Translations under genes and position numbers: made by a program
NCBI GenBank assembly: GCA_963697895.1
Contig: OY969100.1
Span: forward strand, 32,001-96,000
Length of the DNA stretch: 64,000 bases
Direction of reading: 5' to 3'
Source: an uncultured Methanomicrobiales archaeon
Lineage (GTDB): Archaea > Halobacteriota > Methanomicrobia > Methanomicrobiales > Methanospirillaceae
Notes under the pieces: model-generated
Databases searched by the model: none
What the model was told of the DNA's origin: nothing
Seen by the model: the letters and a program-made list of their open reading frames with translations, nothing else
Shown here: positions 3,115 to 25,676 of the stretch, piece after piece
Layout: every line of letters begins with the position of its first letter
How positions within the stretch are numbered: position 1 is the stretch's first letter

Positions 3115-3120
3115 AGCAGG

Positions 3121-3161: not shown

Positions 3162-3162
3162 T

Positions 3163-4318: not shown

Positions 4319-4680
4319 TTCTTCAGCTGAGATCTAATCTCCCACGGGAAAAAAAATGCCGGAGAGCACGGGTGTCTTTAGGGGATTCCCGGATCCCGTC
4401 GGGGGGGAAAATAATTCCCGTTTATTTCACTGCTTTCATTTTGCATTCTTTCGTCATTCACCGGACCCGGGATCGTCGCCGGAAAAAAAGATCTTCCGGG
4501 GCTGGTCCGTCGGGCCGGCACTCTGGCACACGCCACTGCCGGCCGTGATAGCCATCGCTCCCGGTTCTGATGAGATCTTCAGCGGTCATTGTGGTTACCG
4601 TGCCGGATATCGTTCCGGGAAACGGTTAACGCTTTTCTCCCGCGGAACCGAAATCCCTCTGAGAAACCGTGAGTGGATTC

Positions 4681-4809
4681 CTATTTCTTTGCTTCCCTCT
4701 TAAACCCCTTTTTGCACTTCGGGCAGCAGACCCGCGCTGAGGTGGATTTACTCTCCCAGCGGTATCCGCAGCCCGGGCAGGTGAGGGTGGATAAAGGTTC
4801 TTCTGGCAT
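4681..4809 (-). CDS. Small zinc-ribbon protein (about 42 aa)
   Basis: MPEEPLSTLTCPGCGYRWESKSTSARVCCPKCKKGFKREAKK: two CxxC knuckles and a basic tail. Confidence 0.65.
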   Translation of the reverse strand: MPEEPLSTLTCPGCGYRWESKSTSARVCCPKCKKGFKREAKK

Positions 4810-5053
4810 ACCGATCATGGGCATATGGGATGTCCTGCATGTAAAGTCATCTGACGGGGATCTCGTCCGGCATCGAACGGGTTCCTTCGTTTCCGGGGTT
4901 GACCACAATCCGGACCATGACCCCGGGAAGGATCGTCATTGCGCATGCGAAGCCTCGATCGTGCTCTCCGCCCGTTACAGACGGAAACGATCCCGGCACT
5001 TTCCTCTGCCGAAGCCCATATCTCTCCCCTGCACGCATATCACCGATCATCGC

Positions 5054-6104: not shown

Positions 6105-9100
6105 CTAGATGGGCGGGAGCATGGCGAGGATGTAGTCGCGGGGCGGGAACGGGGACGGTGCCGGGTTGTCGCTGTCCGCCCAGGACTCGCCGTGGGTGTA
6201 CCCGAAGTTGGGGTCGGCGATCAGGCTCTGTTCGACGAACTTCCCGCTGGTCGCGTCGCCGTTGCTCGCCTGGGTATATGTCGCGCTGGTGTCGAAGTTG
6301 AGGATACCATTGTGGAATGATCCGCCATCCGGGTCAAGGAAGGCCCAGGTGTGACCGTTGGCGACACTCACCGTGGCATTGTCTTCAGGGATACCGAAGT
6401 CCGGGAAGCTTGCCCGTGCCGCTGCGGAGAGGTTCACCTTCGTCATGTCCGCATTCGCAAAGGTCCCCGCCGCATCGTTGGTCGCGTTCACCTCGGCACC
6501 GAAGAGTGCGAGGGCGTCTGCATGGGATGCGTTTGCAGGATCGTTCACATAATTCGTGAAGTTGACCGAGGCGTTCTGCTGTACCCATCCGAAGGTGAGC
6601 GATTCTGCCAGGTTCGCGTCGGTGACCTTGATCGTACTGATCCCCATGCCGGAGGCATTCGAGGTGGAGTTCACGGCTGAAGCCGCCAGGTCCCGGTCGA
6701 AGACGTTGCTGTCTGCTGCTGCGGTTCCGACCGCATCGTACCCGGCAGAGGCATCGGCAGTCGCTTTCTTGCCGAAGCCCTCGCCTCCCGCATAGCTGAA
6801 GAGGAGGTTCTTGTCGGTGACGGTCTCGAGGCTTAAGTCGACGTGCGCATCGCTTGTCGATCCGACGCCAGCGAGACCGAGCGCAACTCCGTTGCTGGCC
6901 GCTGCCTTGCTCCACACGGTTGCATCGCTCGATGCACTGGTGGTCGGGCTCAGGGGGGTGCTGCCGTATTCGGGCACCAACTGTACTCCGTCAGCATTGG
7001 CCGATCCGCATGCATCCGCACCCGTATCGCCCTTCGTCCCGTTCGTTGCGGAGAAGCTGGCGATCAGGGTCGTGTCATGGTTGTCCATGGTGGGGAGATA
7101 GCCACCCGCAAGAGGATCGGGAGAGACCGAGTTCTCGCCAATTGCCAGGATGAGCGAGGCCGATATCGGGTCCTTGCACTTGTCGCCGCCTACTGCAGAG
7201 GCTGAAACTCTTCCATCGGCAGCGCTCGTCTGCGTGCTGTTCCAGTTCGGTACCGCTGCATAGCTCAGGGCATTGGTGTCTCCGCTTGCCGACCCGGAGG
7301 CCTTGGCCGTCTCCTTCGGGCAGTCTGTCTCCGCAACGGCGAGGTCCGCGATTACGGAGAAGACGTCCTGGTCGGCCTGGGGAATGCCGTTGCCCAAAGC
7401 ATCGGATTCCAGGTCAGTGAATGAACCGGATGCCTCGCCCGCAAGGGACAGGCCAAACCCGCCCTTCGCGGCTTCGGCAGCGGAACTGGCGCTGGATCCC
7501 GAGAACGAGGACGAAGTGGCGTTGATGTCGGGCGTACCGTCATCGGTCGTATCCGCAGTGAACTGGCTCAGAGCAGTCGCATCCCGATCCATGATGGGGA
7601 TACACTCGACAACGGTTGTTTTTCCAACCTTCCTGCTCTTATATTCCTTGTTGACGTCGGCCGTAGCCTTACCGTCGCCGTCCGCCACCGACAGCGCTCC
7701 GTCGAGGGTGATGGCGTGCTCCTCAGCAGTAACGTCTTCCCCGATAACGCCGGCATTCACTTCGCTGGAGGCACCCTGGGCTGCGACCCCGAGGGCGAAG
7801 CCGTCGGCGCTTGTTGTTGCGGCAGTAGTCTTGACCTTGGCGTCAGCGGTGCTCGTTGAGTTCCAGATATAGAGGCTGGCATCTTCCGGAGTTGTATTCA
7901 CGACAAGGGAAGAGTCCGCAAAGGCCGTGCCGTCGGCAGCTCCCCAGGTATCGGCAGACTTGCCCCACGATGCCGAGAGGCTCCCGACCGTGGCGGCGCT
8001 GTAGGTATCTCCGCTTCCGGCGAACTCATTTGTCCCATCAGGCATGAATATGAGACCGTCCTCGTCGATGTCGGTGAATGCGACGATCGCCGACGCCGAG
8101 AGCGGGTCTCCGCAGCCGGCGTTCGCGTTCCCACTCACCTTACCGGAGGCATCGGTCGTGCTGGCACCGGCCATGTACATCCCGCTGAAATCAATACCCC
8201 TGCCGAGGTCTACGTAGAAGGTACTGCTGGTACCTGCCTCGCCATTGGCATTGGTATTCGCGATTGCAGACCCGGATTTGCCGAACTGCTGGGCGAATGC
8301 GACCTGGGCGACCATGCTCCCTGCAGTACCTTCACCATGGTCGGTGTTTCCGGTCGGACCGGCACTGGTGCCTTCACCGGCGAGGAGGACATCTGCCGCG
8401 AGCGCAATTCCATTCTTGGTCTGGACATCGGAGCATGCCGTGCCATCGGCAAAGGCAGCCGAGGTGACATTCAGCAGGGTGACATCAGGATCGGTGACCA
8501 CGTTCAGGACGGACCCGTTCGCTTCGGTCTGGCCGTCTGCGTATGCGTGTGCCCCTGCGGTGCCGGCGGCGAATCCTCCGGTCCCGATAAGGGCGACGTC
8601 CACGAGGTCGCCTTCGTCGCTGGCAAAGTCAGCGGACCCGATCGCTGCTGCGGAGAGCCCCAGCCCGCCATTTGCGTTGGCAGACGTGCTGACCGTGCCG
8701 GACGAACTCGATGGCCCGAAGGGACTAAATCCTCCGGCTGCATTCGCATTCCCGGTTGCCGTGCCCCAGGTGCTACCGGATGCGGCTCCGGATGTGCCCG
8801 CGATCAGGGTCGCGTCAAGTCCCTGTGACTCGTCGATCCCCTGTGCGGAGACCCCGAGGATCACCGATGCGGATGCCGGGTCGTGGTCGGACTTTGTCCC
8901 GGCGACCGCTCCGCCCTCGACCCTGCCGGATGCATTGCTGCTCCCGATGGATCCATAGTTTATACTGTCAGGTATTTCCGTTACTGTATGCTGCCCGACT
9001 GCCGCGGTCTCGCCGTCTGCGCAGGCGCTGGCGGTCTTTTTACCGCTGTCGCTCCCGGATGCGGAGACCGACTGGGAGATGACGCTGATCTCAAGGAGAT

Positions 9101-10664
9101 CGATATCGGGGAGATCAAACTCGAGTTGCGGGGGCTCCGGCTGCTGCAGGATGCCCGGATTGATTGAATTGAGATCTCCGGTGATCGGAGTACTTGGCAG
9201 GTTCTGCGTATCCGGCACCTGCGGGAGTGTGACGGAGTCCTCTATGGGGCTGATCACGTCAAGACTGAAGGTACCTTCATTGGCGCCGATCAGGTCGAGG
9301 GACGTGATCTGGGAGTCGGCATACGCTTCACCGCAGCCTTTGACGTCGACCTTCGCGGAGGTATCTCCCATTGCATTGGTGTTGGAAGAATAGACCGTTT
9401 CAAGTGTTTCGTCTGTTATGGTGATATCGAGCACCGCATTTGCGGTACCCTTGGTCGTACCGGAGGCCGATACCTTGGCATTCTTGTCGTACCCGGTTGC
9501 CCAGGCGTCGCTCTGGAGGACGCTCCCGTCGGCATACTCGGGACTGAAGGTGAAGTTCACGTACGCGAATTCTGGTCCGAACCCTAATTGGCAAGACGCC
9601 ATGGGGACTTCAGTAAATGCATAGATCGACGATTCGCTGCCGGCTTCACCCTTGCTGTCGCAGATGGCTGCGGTGCTGCTGGCGGTTCCGGTCGTGTTGA
9701 CGGAGTATTCGTGCGTCTCAGACGGTGGCGCTCCGTAATATGCCGTATTCTGTTGTCCGACCGGTGTCGATGCGGATGAAGAGGCCGTCGCGGTGTACTT
9801 ACCGGTTCCGCTCCAGACCGAGCTGTTGGACGAGATCTGGCTCGCTACGTGAGTTACAATGGCCGGATCAACTGCTTCGGATTCGATCGCTGCATTGGAG
9901 GTAAACCCGCCCGAGCCTTTTCCGGAACCGTCCGCCTTCGTGGTACCCGTAACGTACGCGGTCAGGTTGCCCGTGTCGGCACTGGCGGAGGCGTTCCCGG
10001 AGGCCCAGGCTCCACCGGAGGCCTGGTTCTCGCCGTACACGTCGGCATAGATCAGGGCGTTGACCGATGGATCCGCATCCAGCAGGGTGGAGGATTCCGA
10101 TATGATCCCGCCGGTCGCATTGAGTATGCTGACGGAGGCACTCTGCACTTTACCACTTGCCTTGGAAGATCCGGAGACATTCGTCTGCAGCTCGGTCCCG
10201 TTGTACGTGGCGGATGCGGTCCCGGACGAGCAGACATCGCCCTCGGCCGTGCCTTTGGTGCCGGAGTCGAGGGTGACGCTGCTCGCGATGGACGAATTTA
10301 TCACGGCATTGCCGGAGTCGTCATCGGACCCTTCGGCCTTGACGCTGCCGTTCAGGATTGCGGTGCCGGTACCGGTCGTCTTGCCGCTCGCCTTGATGTT
10401 TGAGTCGATGCTTACCGTGATGCGACCGTCGCCGCTGGTAGCGGAGTCTGTCCCGCCGTTCGTCGCGTCTTTGACGGTTGCTTTGTTCTGCAGCTTTACG
10501 TTCACATTCTTCTCGACCGTGGCCGAGTGCTGGGTGGTACTATGCTGGTTTGAATAGTCCACCTGGGCGTCGCCTTCGATGACCACCGCGGTTACGGCAC
10601 CGGTCAGTAACGCGATGACCAGGATGACGAGGATGCCCATCATAAATTGTTTTCGGGATTTCAT
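6105..10664 (-). CDS. Giant secreted Ala/Ser/Gly/Thr-rich protein, copy 1 (1519 aa), putative cell-envelope or beta-solenoid protein
   Basis: Basic-hydrophobic signal peptide MKSRKQFMMGILVILVIALLTGAVTA, many N-x-S/T sequons, internal repeats and conserved C-terminus PFPPRDYILAMLPPI. Confidence 0.85.
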   Translation of the reverse strand: MKSRKQFMMGILVILVIALLTGAVTAVVIEGDAQVDYSNQHSTTQHSATVEKNVNVKLQNKATVKDATNGGTDSATSGDGRITVSIDSNIKASGKTTGTGTAILNGSVKAEGSDDDSGNAVINSSIASSVTLDSGTKGTAEGDVCSSGTASATYNGTELQTNVSGSSKASGKVQSASVSILNATGGIISESSTLLDADPSVNALIYADVYGENQASGGAWASGNASASADTGNLTAYVTGTTKADGSGKGSGGFTSNAAIESEAVDPAIVTHVASQISSNSSVWSGTGKYTATASSSASTPVGQQNTAYYGAPPSETHEYSVNTTGTASSTAAICDSKGEAGSESSIYAFTEVPMASCQLGFGPEFAYVNFTFSPEYADGSVLQSDAWATGYDKNAKVSASGTTKGTANAVLDITITDETLETVYSSNTNAMGDTSAKVDVKGCGEAYADSQITSLDLIGANEGTFSLDVISPIEDSVTLPQVPDTQNLPSTPITGDLNSINPGILQQPEPPQLEFDLPDIDLLEISVISQSVSASGSDSGKKTASACADGETAAVGQHTVTEIPDSINYGSIGSSNASGRVEGGAVAGTKSDHDPASASVILGVSAQGIDESQGLDATLIAGTSGAASGSTWGTATGNANAAGGFSPFGPSSSSGTVSTSANANGGLGLSAAAIGSADFASDEGDLVDVALIGTGGFAAGTAGAHAYADGQTEANGSVLNVVTDPDVTLLNVTSAAFADGTACSDVQTKNGIALAADVLLAGEGTSAGPTGNTDHGEGTAGSMVAQVAFAQQFGKSGSAIANTNANGEAGTSSTFYVDLGRGIDFSGMYMAGASTTDASGKVSGNANAGCGDPLSASAIVAFTDIDEDGLIFMPDGTNEFAGSGDTYSAATVGSLSASWGKSADTWGAADGTAFADSSLVVNTTPEDASLYIWNSTSTADAKVKTTAATTSADGFALGVAAQGASSEVNAGVIGEDVTAEEHAITLDGALSVADGDGKATADVNKEYKSRKVGKTTVVECIPIMDRDATALSQFTADTTDDGTPDINATSSSFSGSSASSAAEAAKGGFGLSLAGEASGSFTDLESDALGNGIPQADQDVFSVIADLAVAETDCPKETAKASGSASGDTNALSYAAVPNWNSTQTSAADGRVSASAVGGDKCKDPISASLILAIGENSVSPDPLAGGYLPTMDNHDTTLIASFSATNGTKGDTGADACGSANADGVQLVPEYGSTPLSPTTSASSDATVWSKAAASNGVALGLAGVGSTSDAHVDLSLETVTDKNLLFSYAGGEGFGKKATADASAGYDAVGTAAADSNVFDRDLAASAVNSTSNASGMGISTIKVTDANLAESLTFGWVQQNASVNFTNYVNDPANASHADALALFGAEVNATNDAAGTFANADMTKVNLSAAARASFPDFGIPEDNATVSVANGHTWAFLDPDGGSFHNGILNFDTSATYTQASNGDATSGKFVEQSLIADPNFGYTHGESWADSDNPAPSPFPPRDYILAMLPPI

Positions 10665-10761
10665 ATTTTCTACCTCAGGTTTTTTGCACGGGGATGCATG
10701 TACACTCCCCGTTTTTATCGTACGTTGATTTCGGCATACATTCGTGGGTGAATTGTTCTTA

Positions 10762-10903
10762 TCAGCAGTTGATCATCAAATGCTGGAGCGGTGAAATAAT
10801 TTCGTTCCCGAAATTATCCTCCGGTTATCCGTTCGTTTCGGAATTGCTGAATCTTAGATGGATCAACTATCTGTTTCATACACCCAGGCGGATATAAGAC
10901 TTG
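10762..10903 (-). promoter_or_regulatory. Conserved promoter plus structured 5' leader, copy 1
   Basis: CAAGTCTTATAT TATA-like box, then AGTTGATC...ATAATTTC-N6-GAAATTAT...CAGCATTTGATGATCAACTGCTGA, shared with the other three copies. Confidence 0.75.
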
Positions 10904-10955
10904 TGCTGGGGTTTTTCAATTCGGGAATTTTTTCCCAAAATTCTGTAAACCGCAT

Positions 10956-11003
10956 AAAAAAAAAGATTATGGGGAGGATTTCCCTCCTCCCGTGGTTCAC
11001 CGC
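10956..11003 (-). terminator. Hairpin plus U-tract terminator of giant gene copy 2
   Basis: GGGAGGA-GGGAAA-TCCTCCC followed by T9. Confidence 0.7.
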
Positions 11004-14000
11004 CTAGAAGGGCGGGAGCATGGGCAGGATGTAGTCGCGGGGCGGGAACGGGACCGGGGAGGGGTTGTCGCTGTCGGCCCAGGAACCTCCGTGCGTGTAC
11101 CCGTAGTTCGGGTCGGAGGTCAGGTCGCCTGTAACGAAAAACCCTTGTGTCGTGTTTCCGCTGCTCGTCTCGGTGTATGACGCGAGGGTATCCCAGTCGA
11201 GGAACCCGTTGTGGAATGTTCCGCCGTCCGGGTCCAGGAATGCGTAGGTGTGACCGTTGGCGACACTCACCGTGGCATTGTCTTCAGGGATGTTGACGAT
11301 GTTGTTGTACGGCCCGGCCCGTGCCGCGGCGGAGAGGTTCACCTTCGTCATGTCCGCATTCGCGAAGGTCCCCTTTGCATCGTTGGTCGCGTTCACCTCT
11401 GCACCGAAGAGTGCGAGGGCGTCCGCATGGGATGCGTTTGCAGGATCGTTACCGGGAGAGAATGCGATCGAGTAGTTGATCGAGGCATTCTGTTGTACCC
11501 ATCCGAAGGTGAGCGCTTCCGCTTCGTTCCCGTCGCTGACCTGAACGGTGCTGACCCCCTTGCCGGCAGCGCTCGCGTTGGAGACCACCTTGGGGACGAC
11601 CGGATCGATATCGAGTATGTTGCTGTCAGCCGTTGCGGTGCCGACGGCATCGTAACTGGCACAGGCATCCACCTTCGACTTCTTGCCGTACCCTTCCCCG
11701 GCGGCGTAGCTGAAGAGGAGGTTTTCGTCGGTGACGGTCTCGAGGTTGATGTCGACATGCGCATCGCTCGTGGATCCGACGCCGGAGACACCGAGCGCCT
11801 CTCCCTTGACGGCCGAGGCGTAGCTGGTCACATCAGCCGTACTCGATGCGTTTGCACTCGGGGCAACGATCGGGCTGTATCCGTCGTACGGAGCCGTCAC
11901 CTGGGATCCCGTTGCGCCGGCAGATCCCTTCGCTGACCCGCCGGCCTTCCCGTTGTCCCCGCCGGTCGCCGATAGCGTGGCGATAAGGGTACTGTCACTG
12001 GTGTTCATCGCCGGGACATACACAAGGACCGGATCGGGATAGACCTCGTTTTCACCAAGGGCCAGGATCAGCGATGCAGCAAACGGGTCTTTGCACATGT
12101 CGCTCGCAGTCGCATAGGCCGAGACATCGCCCTGCGCCTGGCTGGACTGCGTTCCGTTCCAGCCCGGAATCTGAGCGTAGTTAAGGGCAGAGGTATCCCC
12201 GCCCGCATCTGCGGAGGCCTTAGCGGTCTCCTTGGAACAGTCGGTATCAGCTGCGGCGAGACCTGCGATCACCGAGAAGACGTCCTGGTCTATCGTTCCA
12301 CTGATGGAATTGACATCGGTCAGCGAACCCGATGCTTCACCGGCAAGGGACAGGCCAAACCCGCCCTTCGCTGCCTCGGCCGTGGTTATGGCGTGCGATC
12401 CCGAGACCGACGTGGACGTGAAGTTGCCGTCCGGCACAAAATCATCGTCGAGGTCGGCAGTGAACTGAGCCAGAGCGGTGGCCTCACGGCCTTCGACCGG
12501 TACGAGTTTGATCTCTTTCACTTTGCCTTTCTTGTCCTTGCAGACCAGTTCCTGCATGTTGACGAAGGCTGTGGCCTTACCGTTGTCGTCCGCCAGGGAG
12601 AGCGCCCCGTCGAGCGTGATGGCGTGCCCGCCACCAGTGTCGACATCATCGATGGAGGATTCGGATTCGCTGGATGCCCCCTGTGCCGCTACACCGAGGG
12701 CGAAACCGTTATCGCTCGTGGTGCTGGCAGTGGTCCTGACCGTTGCGTCAGCGCTGCTGGTGGAATTGGTGATATAGAGACTGTTACCTGCCGTGGTCGT
12801 GTTGAGGACCTGGGTTGAATCCGCGAAAGCGGTGCCGTTGGCAGAGCCCCAAGTGTCGGCAGACTTGCCCGATGATGCAGAGAGGCTGCCGACCAGAGCG
12901 GCGTTGTAGGCCTCGCCGATCCCGGCGAATGACTCATCGAGACTTCCGCCGAAATCGTTGTATGCCACGATTGCAGAGACCGAGAGCGGGTCACCGCATC
13001 CGGCGTTCGCACTTCCGCTCACGGTTCCGGATGCATTGGTCACGCCATCAGCGGAGAAATACCTCCCGAGACCGAGATCGGAATAGTACGTGCTGCTGGT
13101 CCCGGCTTCTCCGTCAGCAAAGGTATCGGCCTTCGCAGACCCGGACTTGCCAAACTGCTGGGCAAATGCTGCCTGTCCTACGATGCTGCCTGCTGTCTCC
13201 CCGGCGCTAACGCCTCCATTGTCGAAACTTATGCCGGTTCCTTCACCGGAGAGGATCGCATCGGCGGCCAGGGCGACACCGTTCTTGGTGCTGACATCGG
13301 AGCATGCCTTACCGATTGCGAAGGCATCCGACGTGATGTTCAGTTCCGTTAAATAGATGGGATCACCGATGATGGTCTGGTGCAGGATCGAGCCGTTTGC
13401 GTCGGTCTGGCCGTTGGCGTAGGCATGTGCTCCTGCCGTCCCGGCCGAGAATGCGCCGGTCCCGATCAGGGCCACGTCCACCAGTGAGGGATCAGATTCA
13501 ACAGTATCGGTAGCATAATCTGCCGAACCGATTGCGGCTGCAGAAAGACCCAGTCCGCCATTTGCGTTGGCAGACGTGCTCACCGTGCCGGAAGAGCCCG
13601 ATGGTCCGAGTGAGGACAGAAGAAGAGAACCAAAGCCTCCGGCGGCGTTTGCATCCCCGGTTGCGGTACCCCATGTCTTACCGGATGCAGCCCCGGAGGT
13701 GCTCCCGATCAGGGTGGCGTCAAGCCCGGAAGCTTCAGCGCCTTGTCCGTCTAGTTGGGTAACGACAAAGGGAACGCCGATTCCCTGTGCGGAGACTCCG
13801 ACAATGAACGATGCGGATGCCGGGTCATGGTCGCACTTCGCTCCGGCCTCGGCCCCGCCCGCGACGGTTCCGGCGGCAGAGCTGCTGCCACTGGCTTCCA
13901 GGATCTCGGTGAATACAGACAGACCATCGGCCGCGGTCTCACCGTCTGCACAGGCCTCGGCGGTCTTTTTACCGCTGTCGCTCCCGGATGCGGAGACCGA

Positions 14001-15611: not shown

Positions 15612-15706
15612 TTTCATAACCTCAGGTTCTTGCACGGGGATGTGTTTTCCTCCCCGTTTTTTCTCACATGTCAATTTCTGCATACGTTCAGGATGAAATC
15701 TTCTTG

Positions 15707-15847
15707 TCAGCAGTTGATCACCAAATGCTGGAGCGGGGAAATAATTTCTTGTCTGAAATTATACTCCGGTAACCACTCTTTCCGGAATTGCTGAATCGGA
15801 GGTGTATCAACTATGGGTTCAATAAACCTAGGCAGGTATAAGACTTG
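15707..15847 (-). promoter_or_regulatory. Conserved promoter plus structured 5' leader, copy 2
   Basis: Same motifs as copy 1; palindrome spacer AGACAA. Confidence 0.75.
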
Positions 15848-15902
15848 CGCTGCCGGATTTTCGACTCCATAGAGATTTTCCAGACATTAAAGGCCGGATT
15901 GC

Positions 15903-15951
15903 AAAAAAGAAGATTAGCGGGAGGAATTTCAGTCCTCCCGTGGTTCACCGC
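15903..15951 (-). terminator. Hairpin plus U-tract terminator of giant gene copy 3
   Basis: CGGGAGGA-CTGAAAT-TCCTCCCG then CTTCTTTTTT. Confidence 0.7.
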
Positions 15952-18900
15952 CTAGATGGGCGGGAGCATAGGCAGGATGTAGTCGCGGGGCGGGAACGGG
16001 ACCGGTGACGGGTTGTCGCTGTCGGCCCAGGAACCTCCGTGCGTGTACCCGTAGTTCGGGTCGGAGATCAGGTCGGCGGCGATGAAATTCCCGTTTGTCG
16101 TGTTCCCGCTGCTCGTCTGGGTGTACGTCGCCAGGGTGTCGATGTCGAGGAGCCCGGTGTGGGATATTCCGCCGTCCGGGTCCAGGAACGCCCAGGTGTG
16201 ACCGTTGGCGACACTCACCGTCGCATTGTCCTCAGGTATGTTGACGATGTTGTTATATGGCCCTGCACGTGCCGCGGCGGAGAGGTTCACCTTCGTCATG
16301 TCCGCATTCGCAAAGGTCCCCTTCGCATCGTTGGTCGCGTTCACCTCGGCACCGAAGAGTGCGAGGGCGTCCGCGTGGGATGCGTTTGTGGGATCGTTAC
16401 CGGGAGAGAATGCGATCGAGTAGTTGATCGAGGCGTTCTGCTGTACCCATCCGAAGGTGAGCGCTTCCGCTTCGTTCCCGTCGCTGACCTGAACGGTGCT
16501 GACCCCCTTGCCGGCAGCGCTCGCGTTGGAGACCACCTTGGGGACGACCGGATCGATATCGAGTATGTTGCTGTCAGCCGTTGCGGTGCCGACGGCATCG
16601 TAACTGGCACAGGCATCCACCTTCGACTTCTTGCCGTACCCTTCCCCGGCGGCGTAGCTGAAGAGGAGGTTTTCGTCGGTGACGGTCTCGAGGTTGATGT
16701 CGACATGCGCATCGCTCGTGGATCCGACGCCGGAGACACCGAGCGCCTCTCCCTTGACGGCCGAGGCGTAGCTGGTCACATCCGCCTTGCTCGATGCGTT
16801 TGCACTCGGGGCAACGATCGGGCTGTATCCGTCGTACGGAGCCGTCACCTGGGATCCCGTTGCGCCGGCAGATCCCTTCGCTGACCCGCCGGCCTTCCCG
16901 TTGTCCCCGCCGGTCGCCGAGAATGTGGCGATCAGCGTCGAGTCCCGGCTGTCCATGACCGGGACAGCGGCATCGTTCGGATCCGGATATGCGTTGTTCT
17001 CCCCGAAGGAAAGGATCAGCGATGCGGAGATCGGGTCCTTACAGGTATCGCCGGCCTCGGCCGATCCCGAAACGCTGCCGTCTGCGGAGCTGGACTGCGT
17101 GCCGTTCCAGTCCGGTACCGATGCGTAGCTGAACGCACCGGTGCTGCCGGTTGCCGACGCGGAAGCCTTTGAGGTCTCCTTTGGCTTATCCGGGTCAGCT
17201 GCGACGACATCCGCGATCACGGAGAAGACGTCCTGGTCAGCCTGGGGAACACCGTTGCCCAAAGCATCGGAGACCAGGTCAGTGAATGAACCGGAGGCCT
17301 CGCCCGAGAGGGCAAAGGCGGACCCGCCCTTCGCGGCCTCGGCCGCAGAGCTGGCGCTCGATCCCGAGAACGAAGTTGACGTGGCGTTGATGTCGGGCGT
17401 ACCGTCATCAGTGATGTCGGCGGAGAACTGGCTCACCGCCGTGGCTTCCCGGTCAATGACGGGAATACACTCGACTGATTTCACTTTTCCTTTCTTATCC
17501 TTGGTTATCTTCTCTTCCTTGTTGACGTCGGCTGTGGCCTTGCCGTTGCCGTCTGCCAGGGAGAGCGCTCCGTCGAGCGTGATCGCGTGCTCGTCGGCGG
17601 CGACGGTTTCACCGTAGACTACTGCACTCACTTCGCTGGAGGCACCCTGGGCCGCAACCCCGAGGGCGAACCCGTCGGGGCTCGTTGTACTCGCGGTGGT
17701 CTTGACCTTCGCGTCGGCGGCGCTCGTGGCGTTCCATACATAGAGGCTGTCATCCTCCAGCGTTGTGTTCACGAGAAGGGATGAGTCCGCGAGGGCAGTT
17801 CCGTCAGCAGCCCCCCAGGTGTCGGCAGACTTTCCCCACGACGCGGAGAGGCTGTCAATGAGGCCGGCGCTGTACGTCTCCCCGCCGCCGTAAAATGATC
17901 CCGCATCAACCGAACCGCCGCCTCCGAATTCGGTGAATGCGACGATCCCGGACGCCGAGAGCGGGTCACCACAACCGGCGTTTGCGCTCCCGCTCGCTGT
18001 TCCGTCGGCATCGGTCGTGCCGTACCCGGCGATGAATGCACGGTTGTCGATCCCATCGGTGGAACCGAGGTCGAGATAGAAGCTGCTGCTGGTCCCTGCC
18101 TCGCCGTCAGCCTTGGTATCCGCTTTTGCTGACCCGGACTTGCCGAACTGCTGGGCGAATACGACCTGGCCGACCATGCTCCCCGCGGTGCCGCCACCGC
18201 CACCGGAGGATTGGAGTCCACTGGCACCGGTTCCTTCACCGGAGAGGAGGACGTCGGCCGCGAGCGCGATTCCGTTCTTGGTGCTGACATCGGAGCATGC
18301 CGTGCCATCTGCAAAGGCAGCTGAGGTGACATTCAGCAGGGTGATATTCTCAATCGGACCGTCCTCGATGGAGATCTGGCGCAGGATGGACCCGTTCGCT
18401 TCGGTCTGGCCGTCCGCGAATGCGTGCGCCCCTGCAGTCCCGGCGGCGAATGAGCCGGTCCCGATCAGGGCGACGTCCACGAGGTCGCCTTCGATCACAT
18501 TGAAGGATTCATAATCAGCCGAGCCGATTGCGGCTGCAGAGAGCCCCAGTCCGCCGTTTGCGGTGGCAGATGTGCTCACCGTACCGGACGAAACCGATGG
18601 CCCGGTTGCGGGAATAAATCCTCCGGAAGCCTCTGCATCCCCCGAAGCCGTGCCCGAGGTCTTACCCGTCGGGCCGCCGGCCCCGGAGGTGCTTCCGATC
18701 AGGGTCGCATCCAGTCCCTGATTCCCGTCGATGCCCTGTGCGGAGACACCGAGGATCACCGATGCGGATGCGGGGTCGTCGCCCTTCCCGCCGGCCTCGG
18801 CACCGCCCACGACTCTGCCCGATGCTGAGCTGCTTCCCGTGAATGCAGCGGTGACGAAATTTTCTGGGGTATAAATATACGTGTGCTGTCCGTCGGCAGT

Positions 18901-20511
18901 GGTCTCACCATCTGCACATGCGCTGGCGGTCTTTTTACCGCTGTCACTGCCGGAGGCGGAGACCGACTGGGAGATGATGCTGATCTCGAGCACATCGATG
19001 GTGGGGAGATCAAACTCGAGTTGCTGTTCCGGCTGCTGCAGGATGGCCTGATCGACCAGACCGGGTTCCGGGAGCGTGACGCAGCCCTCCACCGGGCCGA
19101 TCAGGTCGAGGCTGAAGGTGCCGTCACCGGCGCCGATCAGGTCGAAAGACGCGATCTGAGAGTCGGCATCCGCCCGCCCGCTGCCCTTGATGTCCGCCTT
19201 TGCGGAGGTGTCACCCTTGGCGCTGGTGTTGGATGAAAAAATTATCCCTTCAACCCCCTGAGTCTGGTTGACATTGAGCACCGCGTTTGCCGCACCCCAT
19301 GTCGAAGCGGCCGCCGATACCTTGGCGTTCTTGTCAAACCCGTTTGCATATGCGTCGCTCTGGAGGATGGTGGTGTCAATGTATTCGGGATTGAAGCTGA
19401 AGTCCAGGTACGCGAACTCGGGTCCGAACCCGAGCCCCGGATCCTTCAGAGGGATGGCGGCATATGCATCGATCGACGATTCGCTGCCTGATTCACCCCT
19501 GCTGTCGCAGATGGACGCGATGCTGCCGGCGGTCCCCGTGGTGTTCACATAGAATTCGTGCTCCTCCGATGGAGGTGCTCCGTAATATGCCGTGTTCTGT
19601 TTTCCGACCGGAGTCGATGCGGACGAGGAGGCGGTGGCGGTATACTTTCCGGTTCCGCTCCATACCGAGCTGTCGGACGAGATCTCGCTCTCGACGTGCG
19701 TTTCACTGATGGGATCTACTGCTTCGGATGCGATCGCCGCATTGGAGGTAAACCCGCCCGAGCCTTTTCCGGAGCCGTCCGCCTTCGTGGTACCCGTTAC
19801 GTACGCGGTCAGATTGCCCGTGTCCGCACTGGCGGAGGCGTTCCCTGAGGCCCAGGCCCCGCCGGAGGCCTGGTTCTCGCCGTATACGTCGGCATAGATC
19901 AGGGCATTCACCGTGGGGTCATAATCCAGCAGATTGGATGCCTGGGACGTGATCCCTCCCGTCGCATTGAGTATGCTGACGGAGGCACTCTGCACTTTAC
20001 CACTTGCCTTGGAAGACCCGGAGACATTCGTCTGCATCTCGGTCCCGTTGTACGTGGCGGATGCGGTCCCGGACGAGCAGACCTCGCCCTCGGCCGTTCC
20101 TTTGTTACCGGAGTCGAGGGTAACGCTGCTCGTGATGGACGAGTTGATCACGGCATTGCCGGAGTCGTCATCGGACCCCTCGGCTTTGACGCTGCCGTTC
20201 AGGATCGCGGTGCCGGTCCCGGTCGTCTTGCCGCTCGCTTTGATGTTTGAGTTGAGGTTGACCGTGATCTTCCCGTCGCCGCTGGTGGCGGTGTCTGTTC
20301 CGCCGTTCGTTGCGTCTTTGACGGATGCTTTGTTCTGCAACTTTACGTTCACATTCTTCTCGACCGTAGCCGAGTGCTGGGTGGTACTATGCTGGTTGGA
20401 ATAGTCCACCTGGGCATCGCCTTCGATAACCACCGCGGTTACGGCGCCGGCCAGTAATGCGATGACCAGGATGACGAGAATGCCCAGCATCAGGGGTGTT
20501 CGGGATTTCAT
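15952..20511 (-). CDS. Giant secreted Ala/Ser/Gly/Thr-rich protein, copy 3 (1519 aa)
   Basis: Full-length paralogue; signal peptide MKSRTPLMLGILV; C-terminus PFPPRDYILPMLPPI. Confidence 0.85.
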   Translation of the reverse strand: MKSRTPLMLGILVILVIALLAGAVTAVVIEGDAQVDYSNQHSTTQHSATVEKNVNVKLQNKASVKDATNGGTDTATSGDGKITVNLNSNIKASGKTTGTGTAILNGSVKAEGSDDDSGNAVINSSITSSVTLDSGNKGTAEGEVCSSGTASATYNGTEMQTNVSGSSKASGKVQSASVSILNATGGITSQASNLLDYDPTVNALIYADVYGENQASGGAWASGNASASADTGNLTAYVTGTTKADGSGKGSGGFTSNAAIASEAVDPISETHVESEISSDSSVWSGTGKYTATASSSASTPVGKQNTAYYGAPPSEEHEFYVNTTGTAGSIASICDSRGESGSESSIDAYAAIPLKDPGLGFGPEFAYLDFSFNPEYIDTTILQSDAYANGFDKNAKVSAAASTWGAANAVLNVNQTQGVEGIIFSSNTSAKGDTSAKADIKGSGRADADSQIASFDLIGAGDGTFSLDLIGPVEGCVTLPEPGLVDQAILQQPEQQLEFDLPTIDVLEISIISQSVSASGSDSGKKTASACADGETTADGQHTYIYTPENFVTAAFTGSSSASGRVVGGAEAGGKGDDPASASVILGVSAQGIDGNQGLDATLIGSTSGAGGPTGKTSGTASGDAEASGGFIPATGPSVSSGTVSTSATANGGLGLSAAAIGSADYESFNVIEGDLVDVALIGTGSFAAGTAGAHAFADGQTEANGSILRQISIEDGPIENITLLNVTSAAFADGTACSDVSTKNGIALAADVLLSGEGTGASGLQSSGGGGGTAGSMVGQVVFAQQFGKSGSAKADTKADGEAGTSSSFYLDLGSTDGIDNRAFIAGYGTTDADGTASGSANAGCGDPLSASGIVAFTEFGGGGSVDAGSFYGGGETYSAGLIDSLSASWGKSADTWGAADGTALADSSLLVNTTLEDDSLYVWNATSAADAKVKTTASTTSPDGFALGVAAQGASSEVSAVVYGETVAADEHAITLDGALSLADGNGKATADVNKEEKITKDKKGKVKSVECIPVIDREATAVSQFSADITDDGTPDINATSTSFSGSSASSAAEAAKGGSAFALSGEASGSFTDLVSDALGNGVPQADQDVFSVIADVVAADPDKPKETSKASASATGSTGAFSYASVPDWNGTQSSSADGSVSGSAEAGDTCKDPISASLILSFGENNAYPDPNDAAVPVMDSRDSTLIATFSATGGDNGKAGGSAKGSAGATGSQVTAPYDGYSPIVAPSANASSKADVTSYASAVKGEALGVSGVGSTSDAHVDINLETVTDENLLFSYAAGEGYGKKSKVDACASYDAVGTATADSNILDIDPVVPKVVSNASAAGKGVSTVQVSDGNEAEALTFGWVQQNASINYSIAFSPGNDPTNASHADALALFGAEVNATNDAKGTFANADMTKVNLSAAARAGPYNNIVNIPEDNATVSVANGHTWAFLDPDGGISHTGLLDIDTLATYTQTSSGNTTNGNFIAADLISDPNYGYTHGGSWADSDNPSPVPFPPRDYILPMLPPI

Positions 20512-20608
20512 ATTTTCTACCTCAGGTATTTTGCACGGGGATGCATGTACGCTCCCCGTTTTTATCGTACGTTGATTTCGGCATACATTCGTGAGTGAAT
20601 TGTTCTTA

Positions 20609-20751
20609 TCAGCAGTTGATCACCAAATGCTGGAGCGGGGAAAATAATTTCGTACCCGAAATTATCCTCCGGTTATCCGTTCGTTTCGGAATTGCTGAAT
20701 CTTAGATGGATCAACTACCTGTTCCATACACCCAGGCGGATATAAGACTTG
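20609..20751 (-). promoter_or_regulatory. Conserved promoter plus structured 5' leader, copy 3
   Basis: Nearly identical to the copy 1 upstream region; palindrome spacer GGGTAC. Confidence 0.75.
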
Positions 20752-20805
20752 TGCTGCGGATTTTTCACTATCGGGAATTTTTTCCCAAAATTCTGTAAAC
20801 CGGAT

Positions 20806-20850
20806 AAAAAAAGATTAGGGGAAGGGATATCCCCATTCCGTGGTTCACGC
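20806..20850 (-). terminator. Hairpin plus U-tract terminator of giant gene copy 4
   Basis: GGAATGGGGATATCCCTTCC...TAATCTTTTTTT after the TAG. Confidence 0.6.
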
Positions 20851-23800
20851 CTAGATGGGCGGGAGCATGGGGAGGATGTAGTCGCGGGGGGGGAACGGGA
20901 CCGGTGCCGGGTTGTCGCTGTCGGCCCAGGACTCGCCGTGCGTGTACCCGAAGTTCGGGTCGGTGGTCAGGCTCTGTTCGACGAACTTCCCGCTGGTCGC
21001 GTCGCCGTTGCTCGTCTGGGTGTATGTCGCGCTGGTGTCGAAGTTGAGGATGCCGTTGTGGAATGATCCGCCGTCGGGGTCCAGGAAGGCCCAGGTGTGA
21101 CCGTTGGCGACCTTTACCGAGGCGTTGTCTTCAGGGATACCGAAGTCCGGGAAGCTTGCCCGTGCCGCTGCAGAGAGGTTCACCTGCGTCATGTCCGCAT
21201 TCGCGAAGGTCCCCGTCGCATCGTTGGTCGCGTTCACCTCGGCACCGAAGAGTGCCAGGGCGTCGGCGTGGGATGCGTTCACGGGATCGCCCAGATCCGT
21301 GAAGTTGACCGAGGCGTTCTGCTGTACCCATCCGAAGGTGAGCGATTCTGCCAGGTTCGCGTCGGTGACCTTGATCGTACTGATCCCCTTGCCGGAGGCG
21401 TTCGAGGTGGAGTTCACGGCTGAAGCCGCCAGGTCCCGGTTGAAGACGTTGCTGTCTGCCGCTGCGGTGCCGACCGCATCGTACCCGGCAGAGGCATCGG
21501 CTGTCGCTTTCTTGCCGAAGCCCTCGCCTCTCGCGTAGCTGAAGAGGAGGTTTTCGTCGGTGACCGTCTCAAGGTTGACATCGACGTGCGCATCGCTCGT
21601 CGATCCCACGCCAGCGAGACCCAGGGCAACTCCGTTGCTGGCCGCTGCCTTGCTCCACACGGTTGCATCGCTCGATGCACTGGTGGTGGGGCTCAGGGGG
21701 GTGCTGCCGTATTCGGGCACCAACTGTACTCCGTCAGCATTGGCCGAACCGCATGCATCCGCACCCGTATCGCCCTTCGTCCCGTTCGTTGCGGAGAAGC
21801 TGGCGATCAGGGTCGTGTCATGGTTGTCCATGGTGGGGAGATAGCCACCCGTAAGAGGATCGGGAGAGACCGAGTTCTCGCCAATTGCCAGGATGAGCGA
21901 GGCCGATATCGGGTCCTTGCACTTGTCACCGCCTACAGCCGAGGCTGAAACTCTTCCATCGGCAGCGCTCGTCTGCGTGCTGTTCCAGTTCGGTACCGCT
22001 GCATAGCTTAGGGCATTGGTGTCTCCGCTTGCCGACCCGGAGGCCTTGGCCGTCTCCTTCGGGCAGTCCGTCTCCGCAACGGCGAGGTCCGCGATCACGG
22101 AGAAGACGTCCTGGTCGGCCTGGGGAATGCCGTTGCCCAAAGCATCGGAGACCAGGTCAGTGAACGCACCGGATGCTTCACCCGCAAGGGACAGGGCAAA
22201 CCCGCCCTTCGCGGCTTCGGCAGCGGAGCTGGCGCTGGATCCCGAGAACGAGGACGACGTGGCGTTGATGTCAGGCGTACCGTCATCGGTCGTATCCGCG
22301 GTGAACTGGCTAAGAGCAGTCGCATCCCGATCCATGACGGGGATACACTCGACCACGGTTGTCTTTCCAACCTTCTTGCTCTTATATTCCTTGTTGACGT
22401 CTGCCGTTGCCTTGCCTTCTCCGGCCACTACGGATAGTCCTCCGTCGAGCGTTATGGCGTGCTCTTCGCCGAACTCGCCGATTTCACCGAGGATGGATGC
22501 ATCAACTTCGCTGGACGCACCCTGGGCCGCAACCCCGAGGGCGAAGCCATCCGGGCTCCTGGTACTGGCGGTGGTCTTGACCTTTGCATCCGCGGTGCTG
22601 TTGGTGTTCCACACATAGAGGCTGAAGTCTGCCGGTGTGGTATTCACGATCAGGGAAGAGTCCGCGAGTGCAGCGCCATCTGCGAAGCCACAGGTATCGG
22701 CAGACTTGCCCCACGATGCCGAGAGGCTGCCGACCGTTGCGGCGCTGTAAGACTCTCCGCTTCCGACGAACTCCTCAAACGTATCAGGCGTGGATACCGA
22801 TCCGCCCACACCGGAGTCGGTGAAGGCGACGATCGCCGATGCCGAGAGGGGGTCACCGCAGCCGGCGTTCGCGTTTCCGCTCACCGTTCCGGAGGCACCG
22901 GTCGTGCTGTCTCCGGCAATATACATCTCGTCGCCGCTCGGACCTTCACCGAGGTCGATGTAGAAGGTACTGCTGGTACCTGCTTCACCATTGGCATTGG
23001 TATTCGCGATTGCAGATCCTGATTTGCCGAACTGCTGGGCGAATGCGACCTGACCGACCATGCTCCCTGCAGTGGTGTCGCCGGCACCGATGAGAGAGGA
23101 TCCACTGGTACTGATACCTTCACCGGCGAGGAGGACGTCTGCCGCAAGTGCGATGCCGTTCTTGGTGCTGACATCGGAGCATGCCGTGCCATCTGCAAAG
23201 GCAGCCGAGGTGACATTCAGCAGGGTGATATTTTCACCCGGATCGTCGGGAATGAAGATCTCGTTCAGGACGGACCCGTTCGCTTCGGTCCGGCCGTCTG
23301 CGAATGCGTGGGCCCCTGCAGTACCGGCGGCGAATCCCCCGGTCCCGATCAGGGCGACATCCACGAGTTCGCCATCACTACTCCCTTCGTCGGCGGCAAA
23401 GTCAGCCGAACCGATGGCAGCGGCCGAGAGGCCCAGTCCGCCATTTGCATTGGCAGACGTGCTTACTGTCCCGGACGAGCTCGAAGGCCCTAATATTGGA
23501 CGAACGCTACCGGCTGCATTCGCATCACCCGAAGCCGTGCCCCAGGTATTGCCGGATGCGGCACCGGAAGTGCTGGCGATCAGGGTCGCGTCAAGCCCGG
23601 AGTCTGAATCGATCCCCTGTGCTGAGACCCCGAGGATGACCGATGCCGATGCCGGGTCGTGGTCGGACTTTGTCCCGGCCACAGCCCCGCCCTCGACTCT
23701 GCCGGACGCATTGCTGCTCCCGGTGGAACCACTGGTTACACTGCCTGAAATCTCCGTTAATGTGTTCCGCCCATCGGCCGCGGTCTCACCGTCTGCGCAG

Positions 23801-25437
23801 GCGCTGGCGGTCTTTTTACCGCTGTCGCTGCCGGATGCAGAGACCGACTGGGAGATGATGCTGATCTCGAGGAGATCGATGGGGGGGAGGTCGAACGATA
23901 GTTGTTGCGGGGCCGGTTGCTGCAGGATGCCCGGATTGATCGAACTGAGATCTCCTGTTACCGGAGTATTTGGCAGATTCTGTTCCGGTATCTGCGGGAG
24001 CATAACGGAGTCCTCAATGGGGCTGATCAGGTCAAGGCTGACGGTACCTCCACTGGTGCCGATCAGGTCAAATGAACCGATCTGGGACTCGGCATTCGCA
24101 TTCCCGCAGCCCTTGAGGTCGACCTTCGCAGAGGTGTCTCCAGTGGCACCGGTGTTGGAGGCGATGGCGGTCTGGAAGTCCTCCGGGGGAGTGGAGATAA
24201 CAAGCGCTGCATTTGCCGTACCTCTGGTCGAACCGACCGCCGATACCTTGGCATTCTTGTCATACCCGGTGGCGTTGGCGTTGCTCCCGATGAAGCTCGC
24301 GTCACCGGAAGAAGCGTTGATGATGAAACTAAGATTCGCATATTCGGGCCCCAACTGGAAGTTCGCCACGCCCGAACCGTTTATGGCCGCCGCGAAGATA
24401 TCGCCATAGCTGCCGGCCTCGCCCCTGCTGTCGCAGATGGATGCCTGGCTCGAGGCGGTACCGGTGGTATTGGCCACCTGCTCGAGTGCTCCCCCGGCCT
24501 CCACTCCGGCATAATATGCCTCATTCTGTTCCCCGATCGGGGTGGATGCGGATGAAGACGCGGATGCCGTATACTTACCCGTTCCACTCTCTCCGAAACT
24601 TTCGGAGTAGATGTCAGAGGAAACGATATCTCCTGACGATCTGCTTTCCGTATAGGATTCGATATCGGCATCAGTGAGGAAGTCTCCCGAGCCCTTGCCG
24701 GAACCGTCCGATCTCGTGGATCCGGTCACCGATGCGGTGAGATTCCCGTTGTCTGCTGATGCGCCGGCGCTGCCCGACGCGCCCGCAGATCCGGATGCCG
24801 TGTTCTCACCATACACGAAGGAAAAGATCACGGCATCCGTGCTGTAGTTTCCATTTATGACCGAAGAATTTGAGAAGACACCACCGGTCGCATTGAGTAT
24901 GCTGACGGAGGCACTCTGCACTTTACCACTTGCTTTGGACGACCCGGAGACATTCGTCTGCATCTCGGTCCCGTTATACGTGGCGGATGCGGACCCGGAT
25001 GCGCAGACATCCCCCTCGGCCGTACCTTTGGTGCCGGAGTTGAGGGTGACGCTGCTCGTGATGGACGAATTGATCACGGCATTGCCGGAGTCGTCATCGG
25101 ATCCCTCGGCCTTGACGCTGCCATTGAGTATTGCGGTGCCGGTACCGGTCGTCTTACCGCTCGCCTTGATATTCGAGTCGATATTGACCGTGATAAGCCC
25201 GTCGCCGCTTGTGGCGGAGTCTGTCCCGCCGTTCGTCGCATCTTTAACGGTTGCTTTGTTCTGTAGCTTTACATTCACATTCTTCTCGACCGTGGCCGAG
25301 TGCTGGGTGGTACTATGCTGGTTTGAATAGTCCACCTGGGCATCGCCCTGGACGACCACCGCGGTGACCGTTCCAATCAGTAACGCGATAACCAGGATGA
25401 CTAAAATACCTATCATAAATTGTTTTCGGGATTTCAT
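20851..25437 (-). CDS. Giant secreted Ala/Ser/Gly/Thr-rich protein, copy 4 (about 1528 aa)
   Basis: Full-length paralogue. Start set at MKSRKQFMIG; C-terminal third nearly identical to copy 1. Confidence 0.85.
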   Translation of the reverse strand: MKSRKQFMIGILVILVIALLIGTVTAVVVQGDAQVDYSNQHSTTQHSATVEKNVNVKLQNKATVKDATNGGTDSATSGDGLITVNIDSNIKASGKTTGTGTAILNGSVKAEGSDDDSGNAVINSSITSSVTLNSGTKGTAEGDVCASGSASATYNGTEMQTNVSGSSKASGKVQSASVSILNATGGVFSNSSVINGNYSTDAVIFSFVYGENTASGSAGASGSAGASADNGNLTASVTGSTRSDGSGKGSGDFLTDADIESYTESRSSGDIVSSDIYSESFGESGTGKYTASASSSASTPIGEQNEAYYAGVEAGGALEQVANTTGTASSQASICDSRGEAGSYGDIFAAAINGSGVANFQLGPEYANLSFIINASSGDASFIGSNANATGYDKNAKVSAVGSTRGTANAALVISTPPEDFQTAIASNTGATGDTSAKVDLKGCGNANAESQIGSFDLIGTSGGTVSLDLISPIEDSVMLPQIPEQNLPNTPVTGDLSSINPGILQQPAPQQLSFDLPPIDLLEISIISQSVSASGSDSGKKTASACADGETAADGRNTLTEISGSVTSGSTGSSNASGRVEGGAVAGTKSDHDPASASVILGVSAQGIDSDSGLDATLIASTSGAASGNTWGTASGDANAAGSVRPILGPSSSSGTVSTSANANGGLGLSAAAIGSADFAADEGSSDGELVDVALIGTGGFAAGTAGAHAFADGRTEANGSVLNEIFIPDDPGENITLLNVTSAAFADGTACSDVSTKNGIALAADVLLAGEGISTSGSSLIGAGDTTAGSMVGQVAFAQQFGKSGSAIANTNANGEAGTSSTFYIDLGEGPSGDEMYIAGDSTTGASGTVSGNANAGCGDPLSASAIVAFTDSGVGGSVSTPDTFEEFVGSGESYSAATVGSLSASWGKSADTCGFADGAALADSSLIVNTTPADFSLYVWNTNSTADAKVKTTASTRSPDGFALGVAAQGASSEVDASILGEIGEFGEEHAITLDGGLSVVAGEGKATADVNKEYKSKKVGKTTVVECIPVMDRDATALSQFTADTTDDGTPDINATSSSFSGSSASSAAEAAKGGFALSLAGEASGAFTDLVSDALGNGIPQADQDVFSVIADLAVAETDCPKETAKASGSASGDTNALSYAAVPNWNSTQTSAADGRVSASAVGGDKCKDPISASLILAIGENSVSPDPLTGGYLPTMDNHDTTLIASFSATNGTKGDTGADACGSANADGVQLVPEYGSTPLSPTTSASSDATVWSKAAASNGVALGLAGVGSTSDAHVDVNLETVTDENLLFSYARGEGFGKKATADASAGYDAVGTAAADSNVFNRDLAASAVNSTSNASGKGISTIKVTDANLAESLTFGWVQQNASVNFTDLGDPVNASHADALALFGAEVNATNDATGTFANADMTQVNLSAAARASFPDFGIPEDNASVKVANGHTWAFLDPDGGSFHNGILNFDTSATYTQTSNGDATSGKFVEQSLTTDPNFGYTHGESWADSDNPAPVPFPPRDYILPMLPPI

Positions 25438-25535
25438 TTTTCGTAACCTCAGGTTCTGCACGGGATTGAAGTCTTATCTTTCCGTTTTCAGATTACATCG
25501 TTCATTCTGCACGAATTCAGGGTGAAAATTTCTTG

Positions 25536-25676
25536 TCAGCAGTTGATCACCAAATGCTGGAGCGGTGAAATAATTTCGTACCGGAAATTATCCTTCATTA
25601 ACCCTTCTTTTCGGAATTGCTGAATCGGGGGTGGATCAACTATGGGTTCAATACACCCGGGCAGGTATAAGACTTG
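25536..25676 (-). promoter_or_regulatory. Conserved promoter plus structured 5' leader, copy 4
   Basis: Same motifs, closest to copy 2; palindrome spacer CGGTAC. Confidence 0.75.

Follow-up and report, generated by a model that had tools for sequence, protein, structure and literature searches.

In Helicobacter pylori, babA/babB and other hop adhesin paralogues undergo segmental gene conversion among genes for outer-membrane proteins. The Campylobacter fetus sap, Neisseria pilE/pilS and Borrelia vlsE systems combine a single expression site with silent or partial donors, and their switching has been measured. For archaea, a literature search on S-layer gene conversion and antigenic variation gave nothing on point among the matches listed. 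We describe here a family of giant genes in an uncultured archaeon of the order Methanomicrobiales (family Methanospirillaceae); four of them lie in tandem in the 64,000-nucleotide (nt) stretch of DNA that was analysed, called the window below (contig OY969100.1, positions 32,001 to 96,000), and a fifth lies far away in the same genome. The original prediction, made from the letters of the window, had described the four minus-strand genes as mosaics of one another in which the nearest copy changes along the gene, and both the partner switches seen in sliding windows and a permutation test bear this out. We consider it likely that the five genes are a lineage-restricted multigene family made mosaic by repeated homologous recombination, and that their products are an accessory component of the cell envelope.

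Five full-length copies in one genome

The genes in the window, with the coordinates of g2 and g4 set by the conserved MKSR start, are:

6105..10664, minus strand: g1 (paralogue 1), an intact open reading frame (ORF) of 1519 amino acids (AAs)
11004..15611, minus strand: g2 (paralogue 2), 1535 AAs from the conserved MKSR start; the open frame extends to 15683
15952..20511, minus strand: g3 (paralogue 3), 1519 AAs
20851..25437, minus strand: g4 (paralogue 4), 1528 AAs from the MKSR start; the open frame extends to 25461

The source genome (G000) is one contig of 2,091,725 bases, and the organism is a methanogen, since this genome encodes McrA. A search of it found a fifth full-length copy, g5, outside the window at G000:C1:1321309-1325886 on the plus strand (L003:1501-6078); it lies 1.27 Mb from the array on the opposite strand, and its protein is 80% identical to that of g1. 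All of g1 to g5 are intact, full-length and in frame. Local tblastn and blastn searches with all five as queries found no further family fragments genome-wide. Nucleotide identity between copies is 72–85% overall, and the five together make up about 23 kb, or 1.1% of the 2.09-Mb methanogen genome.

The nearest copy changes along the genes

Sliding-window pairwise identity shows that the closest copy to any one gene changes from its 5' to its 3' end. The principal tracts are:

19813..20391, minus strand: tract of g3 that matches the distant g5 (98.3%, 569/579; alignment nt 121-720)
9729..10364, minus strand: g1 side of a 5' tract common to g1, g3 and g5 (89.9% identical to g3 19576-20211)
8721..9728, minus strand: stretch of g1 that is nearest to the distant g5 (87.1%; alignment nt 961-2040; g1 and g5 are sisters here)
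6108..7676, minus strand: g1 side of the g1/g4 3' tract (94.6% identical to 20854-22419; alignment nt 3121 to the end)
20854..22419, minus strand: g4 side of the g1/g4 3' tract, pairing with g1 6108-7676
11523..11942, minus strand: g2 side of a tract common to g2, g3 and g5 (g2/g3 417/420, synonymous divergence (dS) about 0; alignment nt 3781-4200)
16471..16890, minus strand: g3 side of the tract common to g2, g3 and g5 (g3/g5 360/360 over 16471-16830, alignment nt 3841-4200)
12060..13900, minus strand: middle of g2 (approximate extent), whose protein does not exceed 75% identity to the other copies of this genome and is 86–92% identical to the metagenome protein P0012

In the 330 nt upstream of the genes, 31 informative sites among g1 to g4 join g1 with g3 and g2 with g4 (13|24), and one site each supports 12|34 and 14|23. 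There g1 and g3 are 93% identical and g2 and g4 74%, so that both upstream pairings given in the original prediction stand, the second of them at only this lower identity. Within the first 120 nt of the coding sequence the sites favour 14|23 (seven, against three for 13|24 and one for 12|34); the switch of partners at the start codon was thus correctly seen, and the signal peptides are as they had been written. The ASADTGNLTAYVTGTTK...YYGAPPSE segment does pair g1 with g3 as claimed (89.9% nucleotide identity over alignment nt 301-960), and just downstream g1 and g4 are only 60% identical. Copy g5 behaves in the same manner, being 98% identical to g3 at its 5' end and then about 87–90% identical to g1 over the next kb. 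Toward the 3' end, the C-terminal third of g1 indeed pairs with that of g4, but "near-identical" was too strong a description: identity between 6105-7680 and 20851-22410 is 94.8% (1479/1560), and only a core of 417 nt (6966-7382 versus 21709-22125) reaches 98.1%, with a dS of 0.07-0.2. The near-identity described for g2 and g3 is real, with 521 of 526 positions (99.05%) the same between 11445-11970 and 16393-16920.

The longest exact runs within the tract common to g2, g3 and g5 are 341–449 nt. The exact tract of g3 and g5 is 449 nt long despite their separation of 1.27 Mb and their location on opposite strands, and g5 has 98–100% tracts in common with both g3 and g2; exchange has therefore occurred between non-adjacent copies without rearrangement. 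Because a difference-free tract is common to a copy 1.27 Mb away, the process must be recent.

Tests of recombination

Support for the alternative topologies is heterogeneous along the gene (chi-square 170, 14 degrees of freedom, p = 6e-29). The longest runs of matching polymorphic sites are 96 in g2/g3 and 48 in g1/g4, and 2000 permutations gave no run longer than 16 and 26, respectively. In 300-nt windows dS ranges from 0.00 to 1.18 between g2 and g3, from 0.07 to 1.85 between g1 and g4, and from 0.06 to 1.15 between g3 and g5, and so synonymous divergence shifts by a factor of more than 20 within a single pair of genes. Only recombination or gene conversion between the copies fits values from 0 to above 1 within one pair.

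A partition model with a single tree and proportional branch lengths has a log-likelihood (lnL) of -16984.9 (76 parameters) and one with unlinked branch lengths -16484.9 (112 parameters), a gain of about 500 lnL units for 36 extra parameters; a free topology adds only about 9 units. Because a topology-only test on five paralogues is weak, weight is put on these branch-length tests, on dS and on trees of 13 proteins (the five copies and eight metagenome homologues). Such trees were made for four segments, and 11 of the 12 cross-tests between segments reject the other segment's tree in the approximately unbiased test (p-AU < 0.05); the one that does not is the second-segment tree tested on the first-segment data (p-AU 0.09). 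In these trees the metagenome protein P0012 groups with P0009 and P0011 at the N-terminus and with P0008 and P0014 at the C-terminus.

Two processes have probably produced this pattern together, namely non-reciprocal gene conversion between copies, including the distant g5 in its inverted orientation, and unequal crossing-over within the tandem array. They would have left the 5' end and several 3' tracts nearly identical, with old, deeply diverged middle segments persisting.

Relatives in metagenomes and other populations

P0012 shares 90–98% identity with P0011 in its N-terminal part and about 90% with P0008 in its C-terminal part, and in the tree of the middle segment g2 and P0012 are sisters (bootstrap 100). 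The simplest reading of these relationships is that the distinct middle types are old and predate the split of the populations, and that homogenisation within each genome has repeatedly made the gene ends alike.

Ten metagenome runs from five studies (soil, sediment, peat and marsh) each contain 5–21% of the stretch's words. Contigs of four runs from four studies were placed on 5900-25800 of the window, array parts left uncovered not being counted as evidence. In run X1, 18 of the 34 contig pieces are at least 99% alike to the copies, so a near-identical strain is present there at low depth. Two contigs from separate studies, one of run X2 (1302 nt) and one of run X4 (1771 nt), carry a g2-like middle (about 96% identity) joined to a g1-like 3' end (about 88–91%). 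The joint leads from g1 ...7057 to g2 11978..., with only 13 nt that fit both sides, and falls just after an invariant block (T/L/I at g1 residues 1199-1201). Near this same position g2 of the present genome switches to the g3/g5 type, and P0012 switches to a third type; the same middle is thus found with three different 3' types in three lineages, joined at about the same position. A further contig of X2 runs from g1 9864 into g3 19712. It skips 9847 nt, and the joint at 7057/11978 skips 4920 nt, which fits relatives with fewer units per array. These joints show that other combinations of the segments exist in related populations. No strand-changing joints are present in the contigs placed on the array, and a search for related loci with the array DNA found no relative in genome contigs or metagenome contigs.

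The giant proteins

Pfam gave no match at E ≤ 1 for any of the four window proteins, no NCBIfam family covers the giant proteins, a profile search of PDB sequences gave 0 matches, and the ESM Atlas gave no usable match. A word-indexed search of 5.8 billion proteins returned 12 matches, four from the same genome and eight from Joint Genome Institute (JGI) metagenomes at 53–71% identity. An exhaustive phmmer search of 1.84 billion representatives returned 11, only three of them at E ≤ 1e-30, of which the most distant is a protein of 1615 AAs with 35% identity. The family was not found in 40 relatives, nor by profile in 400 other genomes of the class (44 other genera).

Each protein has one N-terminal hydrophobic segment that is followed by a possible VTA cleavage site. 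The isoelectric point is 4.05, and A, S, G, T and D together account for about 57% of the residues. N-x-S/T sequons number 26–30 per protein, 18 of them at positions common to all five. Internal modules of about 300 AAs recur (blocks at residues 531, 831 and 1131), and of 91 block pairs 10 exceed the highest score obtained with shuffled sequence. AlphaFold2, given two overlapping halves with a 13-row alignment each, predicts both halves to be all-beta with strands of 15–44 residues (predicted local distance difference test, pLDDT, 70 and 72; predicted template modelling score, pTM, 0.76 and 0.79); the last 80 or so residues of the model are of low confidence. Foldseek found no match at E ≤ 0.001, whether to solved membrane beta-barrels or to large beta-sheet proteins (porins, LptD, SlpA barrel), and the best VIA result (Z 7.9 at a root mean square deviation of 18.5 Å) lies within the range that the tool gives as background. 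Taken as a whole, these features make it likely that the proteins are of about 150 kDa, secreted or N-terminally anchored, acidic, N-glycosylated and all-beta.

The invariant blocks named in the original prediction are present in all four window copies, and their described alternation with variable loops fits the model, in which the paralogues are 80% identical in predicted strands versus 66% in loops; 113 of the 158 insertion columns follow non-strand residues. Pairwise ratios of nonsynonymous to synonymous divergence (dN/dS) are 0.20–0.28 in strands and 0.30–0.42 in loops and never exceed 1, in a test that is coarse because there are five sequences and recombination confounds it. The values indicate relaxed constraint with no detectable positive selection, and diversifying selection on the exposed parts is not seen.

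Relation to S-layer families

In a paper on Methanospirillum hungatei, DUF3821 is given as confined to Methanomicrobiales; 14 S-layer protein paralogues are counted in that species, with an architecture of DUF3821, Ig-like domains and PGF-CTERM (PMC11641113). The giant family would resemble them in consisting of Methanomicrobiales envelope glycoproteins with many paralogues; unlike them, the giant proteins lack DUF3821, PGF-CTERM and any Pfam match. Their C-terminus ends ...PFPPRDYILPMLPPI and has no hydrophobic helix, and the PGF-CTERM (PF18204) matches lie elsewhere. Four DUF3821 (PF12863) genes are present elsewhere in the genome, two of them with PGF-CTERM and of about 865 AAs. The Methanosarcina family PF07752 and the Methanococcales family PF05123 have no match anywhere in the genome, and control genomes do match. 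Since ordinary DUF3821 and PGF-CTERM genes of the S-layer type are present, the giant family is unlikely to form the main S-layer lattice, and its members are probably an accessory envelope component. Envelope-related genes also lie nearby, including PEGA-domain genes, nucleotide-sugar genes and a glycosyltransferase island of low G+C (GC) content.

The two DUF3821 genes with PGF-CTERM (G000:C1:519916-522399, 863 AAs, and 1978066-1980540, 859 AAs) lie 1.46 Mb apart and have identical last 35 residues; they may be a second conversion-homogenised family in this genome.

Regulatory-like elements

Each of the five copies has a TATA-like element, a leader and a terminator-like hairpin, recognised as sequence motifs. 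In the window these are:

10891..10902, minus strand: TATA-like element AAGTCTTATA(T/C)C, found 223-227 nt before each ATG (motif only)
15835-15846, 20739-20750 and 25664-25675, minus strand: TATA-like element of the other window copies (motif only)
10762..10869, minus strand: leader with the long-range inverted repeat TAGTTGATCC...GATCAACTGCTGA (from sequence comparison)
15707-15813, 20609-20717 and 25536-25642, minus strand: inverted-repeat leader of the other window copies (from sequence comparison)
10955..11003, minus strand: hairpin and T-run directly after the g2 stop codon (terminator-like)
about 6050-6104 (g1), 15900-15951 (g3) and 20800-20850 (g4): equivalent hairpin and T-run, present also at g5 (terminator-like)

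The original prediction had given each of four intact copies its own promoter and terminator. Intactness holds, the copy number is five rather than four, and the elements are putative ones from which each copy might be transcribed on its own; g5 carries a related TATA-like element. The conserved leader of about 225 nt has a long-range stem of 9–12 bp (TAGTTGATCC / GGATCAACT) and inner hairpins (leader stretches 10665-10930, 15612-15877, 20512-20777 and 25438-25703 of the window, minus strand, and L003:1235-1500 for g5). The stem is kept in g5 though the sequence between its arms differs, and the leader may be mRNA-stabilising or regulatory. No Rfam family was found in 5800-26000 at E ≤ 0.1. 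The inverted repeat was also considered as an invertible promoter, a reading left unsupported by the placed contigs, in which strand does not change at any joint.

Origin of the array and its neighbourhood

The g1 unit and the g3 unit have an equal length of 4899 nt, with 93% identity between their upstream spacers; this points to the duplication of a two-gene unit that conversion later overwrote; the 3' third of g1, for example, now matches g4 and not g3. Simple tandem duplication had been called insufficient to explain the genes, and recombination is indeed needed, but the array does go back to such a duplication of two genes as a unit. It is flanked by:

4673..5923, plus strand: Clp1-type P-loop kinase gene
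25788..26996, minus strand: ilvA (threonine ammonia-lyase), on the side away from the Clp1-like gene

Three of 12 relatives searched have ilvA at E ≤ 1e-60. In one of these three, G007, which belongs to the same family and another genus, the Clp1-like gene and ilvA are convergent and only 14 nt apart (G007:C92:21817-23881), so the array is an insertion relative to G007 and is lineage-specific.

Several features of the surroundings are recorded here for completeness. A tyrosine recombinase gene (phage-integrase family) occupies window 1-828 on the minus strand and runs past the window start; GC content is lower (47–50%) in window 1-4000, and the recombinase could be part of an integrated element situated some 5 kb from the array. 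There are no tRNA genes in the window. Two adjacent PEGA-domain genes lie at 32352-33694 (plus strand), the second of which ends in a weak PGF-CTERM match (G000:C1:65638-65691, window 33638-33691). A complete UDP-glucose dehydrogenase gene (34269-35558) and UDP-GlcNAc 2-epimerase genes (41409-42608 and 43969-45087) are followed at 45195-47386 by short ORFs that match no more than parts of an NAD-dependent epimerase (169 AAs) and, of UDP-glucose dehydrogenase, the central and C-terminal domains alone (213 AAs). In 50000-64000 GC content falls from about 60% to 27–42%, and glycosyltransferase, methyltransferase and polysaccharide deacetylase genes are found; this block looks like a surface-glycan island of foreign composition, and the short ORFs are probably gene remnants at its edge. 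Elsewhere in the genome, about 4 kb upstream of g5, P0024 is another giant secreted ORF (1805 AAs; L009:406-5823, plus strand, G000:C1:1311705-1317122), which consists of near-identical tandem repeats of about 100 AAs, lacks matches in Pfam and NCBIfam and is not related to the g genes. Downstream of g5 there is a PEGA-domain gene.

Alternative explanations

Several points weigh against a family shaped by repeated recombination within one genome and serving the cell envelope. Five of six segments of the five paralogues give the same unrooted tree, ((g1,g4),(g2,(g3,g5))), and so among these five sequences alone the mosaic signal is mostly one of relative branch lengths, with one clear topology switch. 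That switch is in segment B (nt 960-2040), where g1 and g5 are sisters; the data of each of the other segments, A, C, D, E and F, reject the tree of B (p-AU 0.01 down to 1e-122). A single topology for all segments, which the original prediction had named as a refutation, is accordingly contradicted by segment B and by the cross-tests that include relatives, in spite of the agreement of the other five. A search of public sequencing runs found none that contains at least half of the stretch and listed no RNA run with it. The middle of g2 could be an import from another population and not an inheritance. Surface location and glycosylation are suggested by composition, neighbouring genes and a model of medium confidence. 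Codon bias is unremarkable (effective number of codons, Nc, 44.6–47.7; 24th–40th percentile), although Nc was dropped as a proxy for expression, since the DUF3821 S-layer homologues score alike (41–49) and it says little either way.

An origin of the differences in uneven selective constraint along the protein, with no recombination, is hardly credible; conserved blocks and variable loops do alternate, but dS itself changes more than 20-fold within single pairs, which protein constraint cannot explain, the nearest partner changes as well, and the branch-length model test contradicts it. That the near-identical tracts are collapsed or mis-joined repeats is extremely improbable. The exact repeats are long enough to raise the question, but most tracts are 90–99% and not 100% identical and have graded edges, each copy is complete and keeps its reading frame, the genome was assembled into one 2.09-Mb contig, and the independent contigs of X1 cover stretches of the copies at 99% or better. 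Import of foreign alleles from related populations, in place of exchange within the genome, would make sense of the close relationship of the g2 middle to P0012 and of the array being an insertion relative to G007. As the source of much of the mosaic we find it unlikely, in that the most recent tracts are common to copies of this one genome (98–100%) and the g2/P0012 pattern is equally expected from old orthology followed by homogenisation of the ends within the genome.

The original prediction favoured an archaeal analogue of antigenic variation, a programmed, high-frequency process in which the expressed copy is switched or reshuffled in escape from viruses or epibionts. There are indeed several variants of probably surface-exposed proteins, among which diversity might be of benefit; exchange is very recent and has left difference-free tracts, other segment combinations exist in related populations, the predicted loops are more variable than the strands and collect most of the insertions, and through the conserved structured leader the copies could be controlled together. 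Against it, silent, truncated or promoterless donor cassettes were not found genome-wide, the same promoter-like and terminator-like elements accompany each of the five copies, dN/dS stays well below 1 in strands and loops, and strand does not change at any joint in the placed contigs. We regard a programmed system of this kind as very doubtful, and the claim is not supported. A related idea, in our opinion also unlikely, is that the genes are a self-shuffling standing library in which all copies can be expressed, modules are swapped at conserved joints among copies and populations, and the shared leader selects the copy, so that surface combinations differ between wetland cells. If true, the library would be a population-level strategy of surface variation in methanogens without silent cassettes, driven by viruses or partner organisms.

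Comparison with known systems

Like the sap, pilE/pilS and vlsE systems, the giant family would be one of multigene surface proteins with conserved ends and mosaics made by recombination; unlike them, it has no silent cassettes that we could find. The closest known mechanism appears, by analogy, to be that of gene-converted bacterial surface-protein paralogues such as H. pylori bab/hop, which are likewise full-length copies with their own promoters (putative ones in the present case) at separate loci, with similar ends and different middles. The bab/hop genes differ in encoding bacterial outer-membrane barrel proteins of a host-associated pathogen, whereas the giant genes encode an orphan, predicted all-beta protein of a free-living methanogen and number five, four of them in tandem. 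Surface variation in free-living archaea is little known, and this locus is a clean case for follow-up, in which exchange can be dated by synonymous divergence and other combinations of the segments are visible in soil, sediment and peat metagenomes. It also brings forward, as a candidate component of the envelope of wetland methanogens, a family for which neither fold nor function is known. The recombination mechanism is itself ordinary and familiar from bacterial surface-protein families; less ordinary are the whole-gene extent of the mosaic, the five copies, the distant inverted copy, the segments common across populations and the orphan protein family in which all this has occurred.

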